DNA of 64,000 bases from Bacteroidota bacterium (GTDB lineage: Bacteria; Bacteroidota; Bacteroidia; AKYH767-A; 2013-40CM-41-45): assembly GCA_043747595.1 (NCBI GenBank), contig JAYTOX010000021.1:1371-65370 (forward strand), written 5' to 3'. Position numbers and translations under genes: made by a program. This document shows, piece after piece, positions 10,102 to 17,984 of the stretch. Positions within the stretch are counted from its first letter, which is position 1, and each line of letters begins with the position of its first letter. The notes below the pieces were generated by a model that worked only from the letters and a program-made list of their open reading frames with translations, had not been told where the DNA came from and did not search any database.

Positions 10102-11511
10102 TTAATTTTGAAGACTCTTTTGATTGATCATATCCTTAATGTCGAAAATGATTTTTTCAGCTAGATTATTCGCAGTAGTTTGCGATTGACTTTCAGCATA
10201 AATTCTAATAATAGGTTCGGTGTTACTCTTTCTCAGATGAACCCATTCTTTATCAAATTCAATCTTTACTCCGTCGATTGTATTAATTGGTTGACGATTG
10301 TATTTGGTTTGAATCTGATCTAGTATTTTATCAACGTTTATCTCAGCAGTAAGCTCAATCTTATTCTTCGAAATGAAATAGTTCGGATAAGTAGCTCTTA
10401 ACATTGAAGTGTTCTTCCCATACTTCGCAAGATGAGATAAGAACAATGCAATACCAACCAATGCATCACGCCCATAATGTAACTCAGGATAAATAATTCC
10501 GCCGTTACCTTCACCACCTATTACTGCATTGTGTGCTTTCATGGCTTCCACTACATTTACTTCACCTACAGCAGCAGCAAAATATGTTCCTCCCGATTTT
10601 TCAGTGATATCGCGCAAGGCACGAGTCGACGACAGATTAGAGACTGTATTTCCTTTTTTGTTTTTCAATACGTAATCGGCTACAGCTACAAGTGTATATT
10701 CTTCACCAAACATTTCTCCATCTTCACAAACCAATGCAAGGCGGTCTACATCCGGATCTACTACAATTCCAAGGTGTGCATTTTTCTTTTTTACTTCTTT
10801 TGAAATGTCTCCTAAGTATTCGGGTAACGGTTCCGGATTATGTGGAAATTGACCGTTCGGATCGCAATACAATTCAACAATGTCTTCTACTCCAAGTGCA
10901 CGTAAGAGCGCCGGGACTACAATTCCGCCACTACTATTTACACAGTCGATAACAACTTTAAAGTTTTTTGCTTTAATGGCATTTACATCAACTAACGGTA
11001 GTGCAAGTATCTTTTCAATATGTTTGTGATGATAATTCGGAACACTAATATATTTTCCCAATTTATTTACTTCTGCAAATGTAAAGTCATCTGCTTCGGC
11101 TATCTTCAACACTTCTGCTCCATCGTTGGCCGAGAGGAATTCTCCTTTTTCATTCAATAGCTTTAAAGCATTCCATTGTTTTGGGTTATGACTTGCCGTA
11201 AGAATGATTCCACCATCAGCTTTGAAATCAGTTACCGCCATCTCAACAGTTGGTGTAGTAGAAAGGCCAAGGTAGATCACATCTATTCCTAATCCCTTCA
11301 AAGTACCAGCTACTAAATTCTGAACCATTTCTCCTGAAATCCGAGCATCTCTTCCAATAGCAATTACTGGTTTGTCGGTAGTCGTTTTTCTCCTTATAAG
11401 CCACGTGCCATACGCTGCCGTATATTTTACTATGTCAACCGGTGTTAATCCATCTCCCGGGCGCCCGCCTATTGTTCCTCTTATTCCGGAAATTGATTTT
11501 ATAAGTGTCAA
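10102..11511 (-). CDS. glmM: Phosphoglucosamine mutase / phosphohexomutase
   Basis: 'TASHNP', 'DPDVDR' and 'GGEGNGG' motifs. TTG start. Confidence 0.85.
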   Translation of the reverse strand: MTLIKSISGIRGTIGGRPGDGLTPVDIVKYTAAYGTWLIRRKTTTDKPVIAIGRDARISGEMVQNLVAGTLKGLGIDVIYLGLSTTPTVEMAVTDFKADGGIILTASHNPKQWNALKLLNEKGEFLSANDGAEVLKIAEADDFTFAEVNKLGKYISVPNYHHKHIEKILALPLVDVNAIKAKNFKVVIDCVNSSGGIVVPALLRALGVEDIVELYCDPNGQFPHNPEPLPEYLGDISKEVKKKNAHLGIVVDPDVDRLALVCEDGEMFGEEYTLVAVADYVLKNKKGNTVSNLSSTRALRDITEKSGGTYFAAAVGEVNVVEAMKAHNAVIGGEGNGGIIYPELHYGRDALVGIALFLSHLAKYGKNTSMLRATYPNYFISKNKIELTAEINVDKILDQIQTKYNRQPINTIDGVKIEFDKEWVHLRKSNTEPIIRIYAESQSQTTANNLAEKIIFDIKDMINQKSLQN

Positions 11512-11785
11512 AATATTTCTTCTTTTAAATGTTTCTTTTGGGTGTAAAGATAGTCGATTTGCTATGATTTTACCTCGTAAAAGTGCTTTTTAGATTTTTA
11601 TTTAAACTTAGCATTTTGATTTTGGGATCAAAACAAGATATTTATCTAATGAGATTAATATCTTTTAAATGAAGTGTTTATTGCATTTATGTGTAGAAAT
11701 TATCCTTTATCTTTTAATGAATTCATAATACTTATACGCATTTTTTGTTTTTTGATCAATTATAACAATGTCAATAAGAGTATCA

Positions 11786-12394
11786 TTACTTTATGAATAT
11801 ATAAGCTCCTTCTGTCGCGCCCCATACTTGTTCACCTTGCATATTATATCCTCTATCCCAACTATGCAATTCATTTGGAATAAGGATAACGTCGGAAGTA
11901 GCATAACTAGCACCTTTACGATCGCTCGGACAACTTTTTCCATCTGTTGAACCAGCATAATTTCCTTTTTCGTCAATTTTTAATTTTACATCACATCCCT
12001 TTCGTTCTTGCAATGAATCTATCGTCAATACTTTTTCGAGTAATTTAGGGTGATGAGTAAACCGAAGAGGGTCGTTGAATGTAAAAATGAAACTAGAAAA
12101 ACTCCCATCATTATTTTCTATTAAATGATATACTCTTTGTCTGTAAGGTTTGTCGATTGATGTTGCAACTGCTTGCTCAACATAAAACCAAAAGCCATCT
12201 TTTTGCTTTTTCCAAATTGGTTTTATCTGAAGACGAATATCGAAATAGTTCGTTGTGTCTTTTAAATGTTGAGCCGTGCTGGTATAGGATCCTTTCATCG
12301 CCTTAGCTAATTTTTTCAACTGGACAGACTGAGCAGAGGACTGATTAGCGAAAATTAAACTTAATATTAGAAGGATAAAAATATTTTTTTTCAT
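11786..12394 (-). CDS. CpcT/CpeT-family (chromophore lyase-like) exported protein
   Basis: 'YVEQA...KPYRQRVY', 'GC', 'SWDRG' and 'QVWG' motifs, with an N-terminal signal peptide. Confidence 0.8.
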   Translation of the reverse strand: MKKNIFILLILSLIFANQSSAQSVQLKKLAKAMKGSYTSTAQHLKDTTNYFDIRLQIKPIWKKQKDGFWFYVEQAVATSIDKPYRQRVYHLIENNDGSFSSFIFTFNDPLRFTHHPKLLEKVLTIDSLQERKGCDVKLKIDEKGNYAGSTDGKSCPSDRKGASYATSDVILIPNELHSWDRGYNMQGEQVWGATEGAYIFIK

Positions 12395-12430
12395 ATACTA
12401 TTACTTTAATTTTTTACTTCGACTAATAAC

Positions 12431-12461
12431 AAAAAAAAAGAGGCTACTAATAGTAGCCTCT
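12431..12461 (-). terminator. Intrinsic terminator of the csp gene
   Basis: AGAGGCTACT-aat-AGTAGCCTCT hairpin followed by a U-run on the minus strand. Confidence 0.85.
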
Positions 12462-12479
12462 CATTTCTTTTCGGTTCAA

Positions 12480-12668
12480 TTATGCAAGCTTAACATTTAC
12501 TGCATTAAGACCTTTTTTTCCGTCTTGTACATCAAATGTTACGTTGTCATTTTCACGAATTTTTTGTGTTAGACCTGTTACATGAACAAAAATTTCTTGT
12601 CCGTTTTCGTCTTTAATAAATCCGAAACCTTTTTGTTCGTTGAAGAATTTTACTACTCCGTTTTTCAT
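12480..12668 (-). CDS. Cold-shock protein (CspA family)
   Basis: RNP1 'KGFGFI', RNP2 'IFVH' and C-terminal 'GKKGLNAVNV'. Confidence 0.95.
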   Translation of the reverse strand: MKNGVVKFFNEQKGFGFIKDENGQEIFVHVTGLTQKIRENDNVTFDVQDGKKGLNAVNVKLA

Positions 12669-12709
12669 TGCTGTGATAATTTAATTGTTATTAGTTGTTA
12701 TTGGGTTTG

Positions 12710-13843
12710 TTATTTTACAAATGGATGAGACTTTACAATCTCGATATTCTTATTGATCAGTTTATTTATATCCCGAATATAAGAAACTTCTTCTTTCGCA
12801 CAAAATGAAAGTGCAATTCCTGAACTTCCTGCTCTGCCGGTTCTGCCAATACGATGAACATATGTTTCTGCCTGCTCGGGTATTTCATAATTGATTACGT
12901 GCGTCAGTTTGTCAACATCTATTCCTCTGGAAGCAATGTCAGTTGCCACTAAAACACGAATTTTTCTGCCTTTAAAGCCTTTTAATGCTCTTTCACGAGC
13001 ACCTTGGCTTTTATTGCCATGAATTGCTTCTGCTTTTATCCCGTCGTTGTTCAAATCACGAGCTACTTTATCTGCTCCTCGCTTTGTACTGGTAAAAACT
13101 AATGCATGTTCGATCGTATCGTTATTTAATACATGCTTCAAAAGAGATCTTTTATCTTCCTTATTCACATAGTAAAGTGATTGTTTAACTGTTTCGGCTG
13201 TCGATGAAACAGGTGAAACTGATACATAAGATGGGCTCACTAAAATATTGTTAGCGAGTTGTTTAATTTCAGGCGAAACTGTCGCTGAAAAGAATAATGT
13301 TTGTTTTTGCTTCGGTAATTTAGAAATGATCTTTTTGATGTCATTGATAAATCCCATGTCGAGCATTCGATCTGCTTCATCGAGAACAAAATGTTGAACA
13401 TCGTTCAATTTCACAAAACCTTGGTTCATCAGATCTAATAAACGGCCCGGTGTTGCAACAACAATGTCGGTTCCGTTTCTAAGAGACGATACTTGAGCGG
13501 CTTGGCCTACTCCACCAAATATTACGCAAGCATTCAGTTTGTAATTGCTTCCATATACTCGAAAGCTATCATAAATTTGTTGTGCAAGTTCACGTGTGGG
13601 CGCAAGAATAAGAGCTTTAATCGTCTTCTTGGTAGAAGGATTGTTTTTCTCTTGAAGAAGTTGAAGAATGGGTAAAGCGAAAGCGGCTGTTTTGCCGGTG
13701 CCGGTTTGAGCACAACCGAAAATGTCTTTTCCGTTTAAAACGATTGGAATTGATTGTACTTGAATGGGTGTTGGAACTAAATATCCCTTATTGATCAACG
13801 TTTCGATCAGGGATTGACTTACTCCTAAATTTGTAAATGTCAT
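12710..13843 (-). CDS. DEAD-box RNA helicase (RhlE-like, core only)
   Basis: Q motif, AQTGTGKT, PTRELA, TPGRL, DEAD, SAT and HRIGRTGR. Confidence 0.95.
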   Translation of the reverse strand: MTFTNLGVSQSLIETLINKGYLVPTPIQVQSIPIVLNGKDIFGCAQTGTGKTAAFALPILQLLQEKNNPSTKKTIKALILAPTRELAQQIYDSFRVYGSNYKLNACVIFGGVGQAAQVSSLRNGTDIVVATPGRLLDLMNQGFVKLNDVQHFVLDEADRMLDMGFINDIKKIISKLPKQKQTLFFSATVSPEIKQLANNILVSPSYVSVSPVSSTAETVKQSLYYVNKEDKRSLLKHVLNNDTIEHALVFTSTKRGADKVARDLNNDGIKAEAIHGNKSQGARERALKGFKGRKIRVLVATDIASRGIDVDKLTHVINYEIPEQAETYVHRIGRTGRAGSSGIALSFCAKEEVSYIRDINKLINKNIEIVKSHPFVK

Positions 13844-13988
13844 TAACTGGTATTAAAATAATTTGTTGTTACCGAAGGGTTTTCACTATTGAATTTGATC
13901 AGCGGTAAACTACTAGAAAAGTGTAAAAACGCGAATTGTGATTATTTTAATTACAAACTACTTGGTATACAATCTTCTGAGAAGTGTA

Positions 13989-13996
13989 CAAATGTA
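13989..13996 (-). promoter_or_regulatory. -7 box TACATTTG for the helicase-csp transcript
   Basis: Exact TAnnTTTG on the minus strand, about 145 nt upstream of the helicase ATG. Confidence 0.55.
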
Positions 13997-14165
13997 CTAC
14001 TATTTATTCTTAATGTCCTAATAAATATTGCTTTAAGTGAAAATATTATCTTAAAAGCAGGATAAGGGCTTTATTTAAAAGGATTCGCTCTGTTTTTAGA
14101 TCCACTAAAAATGAAAACAAAAGAAGAATTTCGGAATTAAATGTTTGATAAGTGTCTTTTTGGAA

Positions 14166-15305
14166 TCAAAGTTCCAGACCTTCACTTTCAATCATTGTAA
14201 CCCACTTCCCCATCTTTTTTTGAATAACTCTGAAATGATGTTGGTCTTCCGGTGTTATTAAGGATATAGCCTCGCCCGGATTTTCAGCCCTTCCTGTTCG
14301 TCCTATTCGATGAATAAAATCTTTCGGTGAGCGTGGCAATTCATAATTGATTACAAAAGGTAAAAAACTAATGTCTATTCCTCTTGAAATTAAGTCGGTT
14401 GCAACCAACACTTTCAACTTCCCTGCTTTGAATTTAGTAAGTGCATCGGTTCTTGCTCCTTGGCTTTTCTTACTGTGAATAGCCATTGCGTCAATCCCAT
14501 TTTTACAAAGCTTGTCGGTTACATTGTCGGCTTTATAAACTGACGAGGTGAAAACCAAAACTTGCTTCATCTCCTTATGCTTAATCAGATATCTCAACAA
14601 TGGTCCTTTTCGTTCCTCTTCTACAAAGTAGCCGATTTGTTGAATGAGATCTAATTGCTCCTCATTTTCTTTTTCTTCAATTTGAACTACTACAGGGTTA
14701 TGCAAGACGAGCATTTTGAGTGCATCTAAATCTTTGCTCAATGTGGCAGAGAATAATAAATTCTGACGCTTCTTTGGCAAGTACTCCAGTATTCTTTGCA
14801 TCTCTTCTTCAAAACCGATGCTCAACATTTTATCGGCTTCATCGAGTACTAATGTTTCTATCTCATCTAAGTGAACGGCATTCGATGAAATCAATTCTAA
14901 TAATCTTCCAGGTGTTGCAATCAATACATTCACTTGATTAAGCGCCATCATTTGAGGATTGATAGATACTCCACCATATACGGCCAACGATTTAATCTTT
15001 TGATCTAGGCCGCTGCTGAAAAGTTGGAAGACGAGATTAACTTGAACTGCTAATTCTCTAGTCGGTACTAACACCAAAATTTGAGCACTTCTGTTTTTGG
15101 GCTTATTTTTATCTTGAAGATTCATCAAGATGGGCAACACATAACTTGCAGTTTTTCCTGAGCCCGTTTTAGAAATTCCTAATACATCTTTCTTTTTTAA
15201 GATGAGCGGAATTGCAGCACTCTGTATTGGATATGGCTCCGAATACTTTTGTTCAACTAATACTTTTAGTAAAGCCGGCGATAAGCCTAAATTGGAAAAA
15301 GGCAT
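14166..15305 (-). CDS. DEAD-box RNA helicase (core only), second paralog
   Basis: Q motif, KTGSGKT, PTRELA, TPGRL, DEAD, SAT and HRIGRTGR. Confidence 0.95.
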   Translation of the reverse strand: MPFSNLGLSPALLKVLVEQKYSEPYPIQSAAIPLILKKKDVLGISKTGSGKTASYVLPILMNLQDKNKPKNRSAQILVLVPTRELAVQVNLVFQLFSSGLDQKIKSLAVYGGVSINPQMMALNQVNVLIATPGRLLELISSNAVHLDEIETLVLDEADKMLSIGFEEEMQRILEYLPKKRQNLLFSATLSKDLDALKMLVLHNPVVVQIEEKENEEQLDLIQQIGYFVEEERKGPLLRYLIKHKEMKQVLVFTSSVYKADNVTDKLCKNGIDAMAIHSKKSQGARTDALTKFKAGKLKVLVATDLISRGIDISFLPFVINYELPRSPKDFIHRIGRTGRAENPGEAISLITPEDQHHFRVIQKKMGKWVTMIESEGLEL

Positions 15306-15450
15306 TAAGGATTTATTAAGTATTCGATTGAAATAAATGACTTGAAAAATAAAATTAGATTAAGTTGAACAAATAAATATTTTATTGTTCAACAAGAAAT
15401 TATTTAGCCTGAAATAAAATTGAAAAAGCAGATTCCTACTCAAAAAAAAT

Positions 15451-15903
15451 CTACGCTTCTACCAATTCGCTTTTTTTAATATTTCGATGGAGGTAAGAAT
15501 GAAATATATGACGACGTGCAAATCGTGCTGGAATAGGCGTGCTAATTAAATTACCATATATTTTTTTAGGAACTCCAAAATATTCATAAACGCTTCCGTC
15601 TTGAAAAGTTACTTTCAATGTTTGTCCTTTATAAGAAAAATCATCGATACCCGAAGTACTTGTAGTTTGTGTATAGTTTTCAGAATTCTGAGCGTGAGTT
15701 TCCGGAGAGATACTCACCAAAAAATGATACGCTTCAATAATATGTTTACTTTTCTCCGCTGCCATTTCCGCTTGCTCATCGTTTACTTGAAACTTGTCGG
15801 GATGCCATTCTTTCATCAAATTACGATAAGTAACTTTTAATACGCTGAGATCAGCATTTTGATCAACATTAAATAATTTTCTACTATCAAGAATCCTTTT
15901 CAT
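15451..15903 (-). CDS. J-domain (HPD)-KTSC domain fusion protein
   Basis: N-terminal 'LKVTYRNLMKEWHPDKF...IIEAYHFL' J-domain and C-terminal 'TLKVTFQDGSVYEYFGVPKKIY' KTSC signature. Confidence 0.85.
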   Translation of the reverse strand: MKRILDSRKLFNVDQNADLSVLKVTYRNLMKEWHPDKFQVNDEQAEMAAEKSKHIIEAYHFLVSISPETHAQNSENYTQTTSTSGIDDFSYKGQTLKVTFQDGSVYEYFGVPKKIYGNLISTPIPARFARRHIFHSYLHRNIKKSELVEA

Positions 15904-16064
15904 CGTTTTTTATTAATCAGTCTAATTGTTTTTTTATTTTTTAAGCTACTATTTCAATCTATCATGTTCCATTTTTGCCTGGATATTCAGCAATAAAACC
16001 GATTTCTTTAGCTAAAAAGCATAAATTATCAAATTTTTCATGCCGGACAATTGTCAATCTGCGG

Positions 16065-16072
16065 CGAAAGTA
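16065..16072 (-). promoter_or_regulatory. -7 box variant TACTTTCG for the J-KTSC gene
   Basis: TAnnTTCG on the minus strand, about 160 nt upstream of the ATG. Confidence 0.45.
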
Positions 16073-16227
16073 CACTTTTTTTTCGTTTTCGTTTAGTTTT
16101 TTTTAGCATTCTCATCTAACACAAGCAATTAGCTTAATAATTCAACCATCAATAACCTATCTTTATTGCAAATTATCATTCCCAATTCTAACTGAACAAT
16201 TATCGGTTGTTGATGTTCCATTCATAT

Positions 16228-17142
16228 ATGCAGGCAGGAGAAAAAATTATTGAGATAAAAAACCTTGTTAAGTATTATGGAAAAATTTGTGCGCTTTCGG
16301 ACATTTCATTCGATGTATTTCAAGGCGATGTATTTGGTTTTTTAGGCCCCAATGGTGCCGGTAAAAGCACAACGATTCGTTCAATGCTTTCTTTGATTTC
16401 GTCTACCTCCGGGCAAATAAAAATTTTCAACAAAGACCTTCACCTCCATCGAAATTCTATTCTATCGGAAATTGGATGTATTGTAGAGAAACCAGATTTC
16501 TATAAATATCTCTCTGCTCAAAAAAATCTTGAAATTTTAGCGCGTTTATCAAATAAAAAAGTTAGCCAATCAAAAATTCAAGAAATAATTGAATTCGTAG
16601 GATTAAAAGGTAGAGAAAAGGATAAGGTTCTCAGCTATTCTCATGGAATGCGACAACGACTCGGAATTGCTCAAACATTAATTCATGACCCACAACTTAT
16701 CATTTTAGATGAGCCAACAACCGGACTAGACCCACAAGGTATAATTGATATCCGAAATCTAATACTCCAATTAAAAAATGAACGCAATAAAACAATTGTA
16801 TTAAGCTCACATATTTTATCAGAAATAGAATTGATAGCAAATAGAATGGTAATTATTAATAAAGGAAAAGTTATTGTTCAAGGTGAGGTAAAGGAATTAC
16901 TAGATGAAAGTAAACTAATTGTTACTTTTTCTGTAGATCGTAGTGTAGATGCTATTCAACTTTTAAACAAACACTTTCCTTCTACTCTTGAGCATTCAAG
17001 TAATGATCAAGTTAATGTATCTGTATCGAAAGATATGATCTCAGAAATTAATAAAATGTTTTGTGATAATAATATTCAAGTTAGTGGTATAGAAGCGAAA
17101 CGAAAATTGGAAGACTATTTTTTAAAATTAATAAACAACTGA
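16228..17142 (+). CDS. ABC-2-type exporter, ATP-binding subunit
   Basis: Walker A GPNGAGKS, signature YSHGMRQR and Walker B IILDEP. Start could be 16213 or 16228. Confidence 0.92.
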   Translation: MQAGEKIIEIKNLVKYYGKICALSDISFDVFQGDVFGFLGPNGAGKSTTIRSMLSLISSTSGQIKIFNKDLHLHRNSILSEIGCIVEKPDFYKYLSAQKNLEILARLSNKKVSQSKIQEIIEFVGLKGREKDKVLSYSHGMRQRLGIAQTLIHDPQLIILDEPTTGLDPQGIIDIRNLILQLKNERNKTIVLSSHILSEIELIANRMVIINKGKVIVQGEVKELLDESKLIVTFSVDRSVDAIQLLNKHFPSTLEHSSNDQVNVSVSKDMISEINKMFCDNNIQVSGIEAKRKLEDYFLKLINN

Positions 17143-17984
17143 TGTTTTTAAAAAGTGTTTATAATGAATTTCTGAAAATTGCTTCAAAGCCGAGAAGTTA
17201 TATTGGTTTAGGTGCAATCACACTAATAATAGGTGTTATCCTCTTTGCAATGCGAGTAGATGGAATGACTTACATTTCCTTTATCACTGCTCCTTTCGAG
17301 CAATCGTTAAGTTTCGGTGGTGAAATTCTGAATGGTAATCTCATGGCATTTATTATTCTGCAGATGCTCATCATTCACATACCGCTATTAATTGCATTTG
17401 TAACAGGCGATTTAATTTCAGGTGAAGGTGCAATGGGTACAATTCGTTTACTACTTACAAAGCCAATTTCTCGTTCAGGAATATTACTTAGTAAATATGT
17501 TGCCGGTTGCTTTTATACCTTAATTGTACTGTTGTGGATGGCGCTGATGGCCATATTTGTTGGGAAAGTAATGTTTGGTAGCGGCGACTTGATGGTTCTT
17601 AAAAGTGATGGTTTAACTATTATTCAAGCACATGATGTTGGCATCCGTTTCTTTTATGGCTTTACAGTTGCTTACTTAGCTTTAGTAATGATTGCTACAT
17701 TGTCTCTTACTCTTTCGTGTTTCTCTGATAATTCTATCGGACCTATTGTTTCTACTATGGGCTTAATTATTTTACTTACTATTATCAGTACGCTCGATGT
17801 TCCGGTTTTTACTCGACTACAACCTTTTTTATTTACTACTCATATGGCTGCATGGAGAAGTTTCTTTGAAGATCCTATCCCCTACGAGCAAATTAAAACT
17901 TCTATCATGGTTTTAGTTGGTCATATTGTCGTGTTACTTACCATCGCCTTAGTTAAGTTCAATAAGAAAGATATTTTATCGTGA
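17142..17984 (+). CDS. ABC-2-type exporter, permease subunit
   Basis: About 6 TMs, 'GE...GTIRLLLTKPISR...LLSK' and C-terminal 'FNKKDILS'. Stop/start overlap with the ATPase. Confidence 0.88.
   Translation: MFLKSVYNEFLKIASKPRSYIGLGAITLIIGVILFAMRVDGMTYISFITAPFEQSLSFGGEILNGNLMAFIILQMLIIHIPLLIAFVTGDLISGEGAMGTIRLLLTKPISRSGILLSKYVAGCFYTLIVLLWMALMAIFVGKVMFGSGDLMVLKSDGLTIIQAHDVGIRFFYGFTVAYLALVMIATLSLTLSCFSDNSIGPIVSTMGLIILLTIISTLDVPVFTRLQPFLFTTHMAAWRSFFEDPIPYEQIKTSIMVLVGHIVVLLTIALVKFNKKDILS

Follow-up and report, generated by a model that had tools for sequence, protein, structure and literature searches.

J-domain proteins decide where Hsp70 works, and we know of no client for most bacterial J-domain proteins of class C. 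In eukaryotes, the J proteins Zuotin (Zuo1) and Jjj1 take Hsp70 to ribosomes or pre-ribosomes by means of an RNA- or ribonucleoprotein (RNP)-binding part; to our knowledge these proteins have no bacterial counterpart. On the side of RNA, the cold-shock DEAD-box helicase CsdA/DeaD and the cold-shock protein (Csp) CspA are the familiar pair in Escherichia coli. Here we describe a 64,000-nucleotide (nt) stretch of DNA from a Bacteroidota bacterium (contig JAYTOX010000021.1, positions 1,371 to 65,370; the whole stretch is henceforth referred to as ‘the window’), in which the gene for a J domain fused to a KTSC domain (J-KTSC) is followed by genes for two DEAD-box RNA helicases (DEAD1 and DEAD2) and a cold-shock protein (csp). 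An earlier note on this DNA had proposed that the four genes form a single RNA-stress system. The explanation that we favour, with moderate confidence, is that the locus consists of two units standing side by side and that the coupling of J-KTSC with DEAD-box helicases is facultative.

The nearest characterised analogue of J-KTSC is AtcJ, which heads the AtcJABC cold-adaptation operon of Shewanella oneidensis and which, in the accessible part of its description, is likewise a short class C protein with a small C-terminal targeting part (PMC6715715). The same account gives AtcJ a 21-residue extension that binds AtcC (PMC6715715), whereas J-KTSC carries the KTSC domain instead. We rejected J-KTSC as an AtcJ proper: it scored 22.9 bits with the model NF050028, against a cut-off of 150, and the genes downstream of it are those for the helicases and csp. 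The name ‘ActJ’, which this family bears in NCBIfam, we take to mean AtcJ of Shewanella. Genes resembling atcA, atcB or atcC were not among the annotated neighbours of J-KTSC (no direct search for them was made).

The small KTSC fold of J-KTSC is found in the structures 7x8c (Methanolobus vulcani) and 4rgi (Yersinia pestis YPO2434) and in the arm of HerA (8wiv), all of which, unlike J-KTSC, have KTSC without a fused J domain. As far as the accessible text describes it, the HerA arm stabilises the hexamer via protein contacts (PMC11472057). For the second half of the locus, the closest described systems are helicase-Csp partnerships such as that of CshB with CspB in Bacillus subtilis, which is tabulated, citing Hunger et al. 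2006, in the accessible part of PMC6178137. Like CshB/CspB, a pair that acts on RNA in the cold, DEAD2-csp combines a DEAD-box helicase with a CspA-family protein; unlike CshB/CspB, its two genes form a single conserved operon, the leader of which is long and likewise conserved, and its helicase has no C-terminal extension. Both helicases of the locus resemble RhlE-type helicases (NF007882) in having all core motifs and differ from them in missing the basic tail.

Genetic organisation of the locus

Gene order and conservation among relatives make it highly probable that the locus is built from two units, J-KTSC-DEAD1 and DEAD2-csp. The genes, gaps and flanks are as follows (ORF, open reading frame; aa, amino acids):

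15451 to 15903, minus strand: J-KTSC, a 150-aa ORF with Pfam DnaJ and KTSC domains
15306 to 15450, minus strand: gap between J-KTSC and DEAD1, 145 nt, without a significant fold and without a terminator-like site
14166 to 15305, minus strand: DEAD1, a 379-aa ORF, DEAD-box RNA helicase without a tail, from an orthogroup of its own
13844 to 14165, minus strand: gap between DEAD1 and DEAD2, 322 nt, the proximal ~170 nt conserved and the distal part an insertion junction
12710 to 13843, minus strand: DEAD2, a 377-aa ORF, tail-less RhlE-like DEAD-box helicase heading the predicted DEAD2-csp operon
12480 to 12668, minus strand: csp, a 62-aa ORF of the CspA family, 41 nt after DEAD2
12438 to 12462, minus strand: terminator-like hairpin with a T run, an 11-pair stem with 5 G-C pairs
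16207 to 17142, plus strand: ABC transporter ATPase, the divergent flank and a synteny anchor, which faces DEAD2 directly in insertion-free relatives
11786 to 12394, minus strand: CpeT/CpcT-family protein (Pfam, 156.1 bits), the conserved flank downstream of csp

What the earlier note had seen in the sequence was borne out. The four genes are co-oriented ORFs on the minus strand that end in one strong terminator-like hairpin (12462..12438), the first gene does encode a J domain with an intact HPD (residues 34-36) fused to KTSC, both domains being recognised by Pfam, and the two helicases, put at about 378 aa with all motifs and no C-terminal extension, have 379 and 377 aa and are missing the tail of the RhlE model. 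Since the intergenic gaps, in the order J-KTSC, DEAD1, DEAD2, csp, measure 145, 322 and 41 nt, one transcript across all four genes is possible. Read-through from DEAD1 into DEAD2-csp may occur. Besides the hairpin at 12462..12438, no terminator-like site on the minus strand was found in any other intergenic gap of the four.

DEAD2-csp is conserved as a unit of its own. In six relatives within the genus (G005, G007, G009, G011, G013 and G016) the order of a divergent ABC ATPase gene, DEAD2 and then csp is kept, with DEAD2 81-83% identical and csp 98-100% identical, and the CpeT-like gene follows csp in four of the six, namely those with a contig that reaches far enough. The arrangement does not depend on the presence of J-KTSC elsewhere in the genome. 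DEAD2 followed by csp was also found in another member of the genus (G003, 70% identity) and in one genome from another family of the order (G023, 69%). The csp product has a cold-shock domain of the CspA family (Pfam CSD, PF00313, 64.3 bits), and the stretches KGFGFI and IFVHV in its translation resemble the RNP1 and RNP2 motifs.

Directly upstream of DEAD2, ~170 nt (13844 to ~14010, minus strand) are strongly conserved, with long invariant runs, in an alignment of 7 and then 10 genomes that have or do not have the insertion (the window, L002, L188, L190-L195 and L197), and likeness to the insertion-free genomes ends just upstream of this block. Within the block lies TACATTTG (13996..13989), which fits the promoter consensus for the -7 element of Bacteroidota. 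The site before DEAD2 is the only minus-strand match to the pattern TANNTTTG in 12431-16300; across the window the pattern is not enriched (98 matches against 90.7 expected), and the weight of the site comes only from its place in the conserved block. No Rfam match to the leader was found in a scan of 11000-17500, RNAalifold supported no defined structure for it (9 pairs, 0 covarying, -2.07 kcal/mol), and a genome-wide search with its most conserved words yielded no regulon-like repetition. The conserved block is probably the promoter and long 5′ leader (~140-170 nt) of DEAD2-csp, and the leader may be a regulatory element. Judged by these conserved features, DEAD2-csp is a resident, conserved cold-shock-type operon separate from J-KTSC-DEAD1.

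J-KTSC and DEAD1 behave as a pair within the genus. J-KTSC is present in 8 of 19 genomes, i.e. in 7 of the 18 relatives, and precisely the same seven have an ortholog of DEAD1 (at least 72% identity), all other genomes offering at most 45% identity. In all six relatives that could be evaluated, J-KTSC and DEAD1 stand side by side on one strand; in the seventh (G001) both lie at contig ends. A weak additional J-KTSC match in G010 proved to be the J domain of a 382-aa protein, and 12 genomes from elsewhere in the order, all of other families, yielded no true J-KTSC. Within the genus, the pair stands between the ABC gene and DEAD2 in the window and its closest relative (L002, from genome G012) only, and in G013, G007 and G011 the pair occupies a different context that is common to all three. 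G005, which has no J-KTSC, retains a remnant of DEAD1 consisting of the last 125 codons (residues 255-379, 84% identity; L196:6004-6375, on contig G005:C16). Because this remnant shares its downstream flank with the intact pair of G013, G007 and G011, the sequence indicates that G005 lost the J-KTSC-DEAD1 pair by deletion. On the evidence of these arrangements, the four genes came together recently, when an accessory pair was placed next to a resident operon. J-KTSC-DEAD1 would be an accessory module whose genes are kept or lost together in the genus, and which in this genome and its closest relative would have relocated into the gap just upstream of DEAD2-csp; the latter, with its own promoter-like block and leader, would hold a fixed place between the ABC transporter and the CpeT-like gene.

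Domain structure of J-KTSC and the two helicases

J-KTSC scores above the Pfam cut-offs for both of its domains (DnaJ, PF00226, 33.9 bits against 27.8; KTSC, PF13619, 54.1 against 25) and divides into a J domain (~1-66), a helical linker (67-83) and a basic KTSC domain (84-144). Pfam finds DnaJ and KTSC only in the 150 aa; a G/F-rich region, a zinc finger and the C-terminal domains of DnaJ are absent, and the DnaJ equivalog models of NCBIfam score the protein far under their cut-offs. The HPD-bearing J domain and the absence of further DnaJ domains are those of class C (type III), and we therefore assign J-KTSC, from its sequence, to the class C J-domain proteins, with the KTSC domain as the predicted targeting part. 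In an alignment of 23 sequences, H34 of the HPD is invariant and P35 and D36 are at least 90% conserved, and the central Y-x-Y of KTSC (Y106, Y108) is invariant in relatives. The KTSC part is basic across all 34 relatives (median pI 9.8, median net charge +4.7). Some sources label relatives of J-KTSC ‘curved DNA-binding protein CbpA’.

An AlphaFold2 model built from 34 sequences (pLDDT 91.6, pTM 0.81) consists of a helical J domain, in which helices 19-33 and 42-64 bracket the HPD loop, a linker of two helices and a KTSC domain of small beta-alpha type. Its pTM predicts that the J and KTSC domains are held rigidly to each other. Foldseek superposed the J part on many J domains, including DnaK-bound DnaJ (5nro_B, rmsd 1.7, 56 columns), and matched the KTSC part to 7x8c (TM 0.83), to 4rgi (TM 0.79, both target-normalised) and also to the C-terminal part of HerA. 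A profile search agrees with Foldseek, reaching 7x8c at E 1.9e-08. The genome encodes a single DnaK and four J-domain proteins, namely a 387-aa DnaJ-like protein, a 321-aa protein, a 244-aa protein and J-KTSC.

DEAD1 and DEAD2 are complete in their helicase core. Pfam gives DEAD (PF00270) 155.7 and 182.6 bits and Helicase_C (PF00271) 106 and 109.6 bits, respectively, and the Q motif and motifs I, Ia, Ib, II (DEAD), III (SAT), IV, V and VI can be read from both translations. Helicase_C stops at residue 340 in DEAD1 and 339 in DEAD2. The RhlE model NF007882 is the top model for DEAD1 (411.8 bits) and the second, by a small margin, for DEAD2 (465.6 bits); its alignment covers model positions 1-377 and 1-370, respectively, of 456, from which it follows that the basic C-terminal tail is missing from both. 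With scores under the equivalog cut-off of 743 and no tail, neither was accepted as an RhlE equivalog. The DEAD1 orthogroup is sharply bounded: orthologs, which are 377-385 aa long where aligned, match at E of 1e-141 or lower with at least 61% identity class-wide, and the next matches appear only at 1e-105.

Neighbours of J-KTSC across the class

J-KTSC is widespread: its matches (E of 0.001 or lower) form at least 4,475 clusters when grouped at 90% identity, and the genome collection has it in 576 species or more. It was present, as a single copy, in 101 of 400 genomes drawn evenly from the class (two matches in G316 are one gene split across contig ends), being core in some families and absent from others. 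These class counts, and those of DEAD1 below, include genome G122, which the evenly drawn set of 100 loci omits.

Two samples of J-KTSC loci were used. Among the 80 best-matching loci, a canonical DEAD-box gene lay within 7 kb in 5, always adjacent to J-KTSC, and csp in 2. Among the 100 evenly drawn loci, 7 had canonical DEAD-box genes within 6 kb and 1 had csp; the 11 DEAD-box genes in these 1.14 Mb compare with ~2 expected, as estimated from the 6 canonical DEAD-box genes of the 3.59-Mb genome studied here. Pooling the samples, in which some genomes occur twice, gave 177 loci with a called J-KTSC ORF, representing 100 lineages at 80% J-KTSC identity. The 989 ORFs within three genes of J-KTSC at these loci fell into 690 clusters, of which the DEAD-box cluster was represented in 13 of the 100 lineages, or in 9 of 95 when the genus is left aside, with 26 genes at 17 loci, and the runner-up family in 3 lineages. 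By chance, ~1 DEAD-box lineage would be expected at 6 genes per 3.59 Mb, the lineages not being fully independent. All 26 DEAD-box genes lie on the strand of J-KTSC. The DEAD-box helicase is the only recurrent neighbour family of J-KTSC class-wide.

The helicases beside J-KTSC belong to three orthogroups (the DEAD1 type, a 437-aa type and a 446-aa type), both orders occur (J-KTSC before DEAD1 and DEAD1 before J-KTSC), and the gaps in other lineages go down to 10-57 nt. The enrichment that the earlier note proposed to look for was found for DEAD-box genes (13 of 100 lineages) and failed for csp (1 of 100 loci). Of the link that it drew between J-KTSC and helicases, the part that stands is the pairing in the genus and the recurrence across the class; against it, the neighbourhood of at least 90% of J-KTSC genes is free of helicases. 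Of 187 loci, only the window, L002 and L080, the last with other helicase types, have all four kinds of gene at one locus.

Some individual arrangements deserve mention. L080:7001-10537, from Aquimarina longa, reads J-KTSC, DEAD (446-448 aa), DEAD (436 aa), csp, and L046:7001-10201, from a second Aquimarina, has the same order up to the second helicase; the Aquimarina helicase tandem is also found 1-2.7 kb upstream of J-KTSC in L157 and L161. In L096:4532-7624, L099:4750-7894 and L031:2833-6385, J-KTSC stands between DEAD-box genes, the upstream one being of a 401-437-aa type and the downstream one of the DEAD1 type. An RlmF-like RNA methyltransferase (PF05971) adjoins J-KTSC in three separate lineages, and a pseudouridine synthase lies beside it in Mucilaginibacter loci; the loci with such company are L010, L021:3868-4845 and L062:5687-6646 on the one hand and L032:3309-4034, L035 and L043 on the other. 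These RlmF-like and pseudouridine synthase neighbours are a weak hint at rRNA-related company.

A possible role for J-KTSC at helicase substrates

We regard a real functional tie of J-KTSC with DEAD-box helicases as plausible, though our confidence falls somewhat short of even. Were it to exist, the J domain with its HPD would activate ATP hydrolysis by the single DnaK of the genome, and the basic KTSC domain would choose the target. Because DEAD-box helicases are the only recurrent, same-strand neighbour family, that target would most likely be an RNP worked on by the helicases, or the helicase itself; candidate particles would be ribosome-assembly or mRNA-processing intermediates, plausibly in the cold. 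The coupling would be facultative, the majority of J-KTSC genes having no helicase beside them and either partner being found without the other. A more specific version, in which J-KTSC brings DnaK to helicase-remodelled RNPs, for instance ribosome-assembly intermediates in the cold, with KTSC as the RNA or RNP anchor, and so links the chaperoning of proteins with that of RNA as a bacterial counterpart of the eukaryotic ribosome-associated J proteins, is an unlikely one on present evidence and is argued by analogy; DEAD1 would then be the preferred helicase where lineages keep the genes together. The likeness to Zuo1 and Jjj1 is one of function, with no relation in sequence or fold beyond the J domain.

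What is written about KTSC leaves its ligand ambiguous, and direct binding of RNA by KTSC seems doubtful to us. In the accessible parts of their texts, two papers from one group call KTSC RNA- or DNA-binding in passing, as a prediction (PMC7824862, PMC9503650), and the second names it a DNA-binding domain (PMC9503650). In the SIR2-HerA complex the ‘arm domain’ of HerA (aa 576-696) is described, again in the accessible text, as touching a helix of the neighbouring subunit (PMC11472057), and the KTSC match falls inside this arm (residues 606-694 of 8wiv). No function of the stand-alone KTSC proteins 7x8c and 4rgi is reported in searchable texts. The full-text literature for KTSC, a search that left out bioRxiv supplements and subscription journals, contained no paper on the J-KTSC fusion; a large census of J-domain proteins is absent from those matches, and the one supplement of it that was checked contains neither ‘KTSC’ nor ‘PF13619’. 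A transcript for a ‘KTSC domain-containing protein’, possibly a J-KTSC, is listed in the accessible part of PMC10057207 among the highly abundant small transcripts of Flavobacterium psychrophilum.

Across the 400 class genomes, DEAD1 was found in 39, and J-KTSC is present in 30 of these 39 as opposed to 71 of the 361 DEAD1-negative genomes. At the level of families, J-KTSC occurs in 15 of 17 with DEAD1 and in 10 of 66 others. Genus g57 has J-KTSC in 9 of 9 genomes and is uninformative on co-variation.

A number of observations weigh against a tie of J-KTSC to helicases, and to DEAD1 in particular. No canonical DEAD-box gene lies within 6-7 kb of J-KTSC at 93 of the 100 evenly drawn and 75 of the 80 best-matching loci. 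Of the 30 class genomes with both DEAD1 and J-KTSC, only 4 have the two adjacent, and in three genomes with both on one contig they are 155-560 kb apart. Nine of the 39 DEAD1-positive genomes have no J-KTSC, and eight of the nine are 97-100% complete (the other, G320, 90%). In another genus, in which the genes are unlinked, 22 genomes divide into 5 with both, 3 with DEAD1 only, 7 with J-KTSC only and 7 with neither. The co-distribution at family level could come from shared ancestry or habitat. The metagenome loci that the DEAD1 alignment matched were for the most part paralogs (43-50% identity); only six were of the DEAD1 type, and J-KTSC was found within 3 kb of none of these. The exact promoter motif TANNTTTG was not found upstream of J-KTSC or DEAD1. 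Finally, the HerA arm, the only solved KTSC-like domain encountered within a larger assembly, makes a protein-protein contact in the accessible account (PMC11472057). Overall, the tie between J-KTSC and helicases is real as an enrichment yet facultative, and each gene occurs without the other.

The rival that survives best, though we consider it improbable rather than probable, is that co-regulation or chance alone placed helicases beside J-KTSC, through clustering of stress or cold genes, hitch-hiking or shared habitat, and that the client of J-KTSC is some other protein, or DNA as in CbpA-like nucleoid proteins. It would account for the 90% or more of J-KTSC loci that have no helicase, for the heterogeneity of the neighbours (297 ORFs in 209 clusters, including a glycosyltransferase, a hybrid kinase and PhyH) and for the lack of co-occurrence of J-KTSC and DEAD1 in the 22-genome genus; the CbpA label of some relatives, the naming of KTSC as DNA-binding in the accessible part of PMC9503650 and the protein contact of the SIR2-HerA complex in that of PMC11472057 all agree with it. 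It does not readily explain why the DEAD-box family is the sole one found in more than three lineages, with 26 of 26 genes co-directional, while far more abundant families such as ABC ATPases are not recurrent, nor why the pair stayed intact through relocation and the two genes show identical presence and absence genus-wide.

Considerably less likely is a second rival, according to which KTSC is a protein-docking domain that sits on the helicase, DEAD1 being a client or partner of DnaK, for instance for folding or for release from RNA, with no direct contact of J-KTSC with RNA. The KTSC-like arm of HerA (606-694 of 8wiv), which in the accessible account touches the neighbouring subunit of a P-loop ATPase ring (PMC11472057), is a precedent for such docking, and the pairing of J-KTSC with DEAD1 is tight in the genus. 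Against this, 71 of the 101 J-KTSC-positive class genomes and 10 J-KTSC-positive families have J-KTSC without DEAD1, the helicases beside J-KTSC come from three different orthogroups, and the KTSC domain is consistently basic.

The weakest reading is the single, co-transcribed and dedicated four-component RNA-stress system of the earlier note, in which KTSC or Csp would target the tail-less helicases in trans: it is very unlikely, for although it can point to four co-directional genes before a single terminator-like site, to the absence of a C-terminal tail from both helicases and to the similar gene orders of the two Aquimarina loci (without csp in L046), the composition is found in the genus only in the window and its nearest relative, the pairs being separate elsewhere, DEAD2-csp has its own conserved upstream block, csp is within 6-7 kb of J-KTSC at only 1 of 100 and 2 of 80 loci and belongs to the independent DEAD2-csp operon, and the Aquimarina helicases (436-448 aa) are not tail-less and come from other orthogroups.

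We return to the explanation that we favour, two side-by-side units with facultative coupling of J-KTSC and helicases. It corrects the picture of a four-gene ‘system’ and brings to light DEAD2-csp as a conserved operon whose leader is both long and conserved. J-KTSC itself emerges as a widespread, uncharacterised J-domain protein, a reasonable lead and not a defined system. Its repeated co-directional association with helicases leads to the hypothesis that DnaK is recruited to the substrates of RNA helicases, which, if true, would bear on how protein and RNA chaperones are coordinated in the cold.

Minor features of the locus

The 145-nt gap between J-KTSC and DEAD1 folds no better than shuffled sequences when taken as a whole (z = -0.80); it contains an A/T-rich inverted repeat, the 9-bp arms of which pair perfectly around a 12-nt loop (15360-15395, minus strand). 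A scan of the locus for sigma-70-type promoters gave 11 sites against 16.9 in shuffles and is uninformative for this phylum. The sole Rfam match in 11000-17500 was a sub-threshold L20_leader (30.8 bits against a cut-off of 58.7; 12426-12520, minus strand), which overlies the 3′ end of csp and the terminator and was taken as chance. The CpeT/CpcT-family (DUF1001) protein encoded at 11786-12394 has a signal-peptide-like N-terminus, and its gene is kept directly downstream of csp genus-wide.

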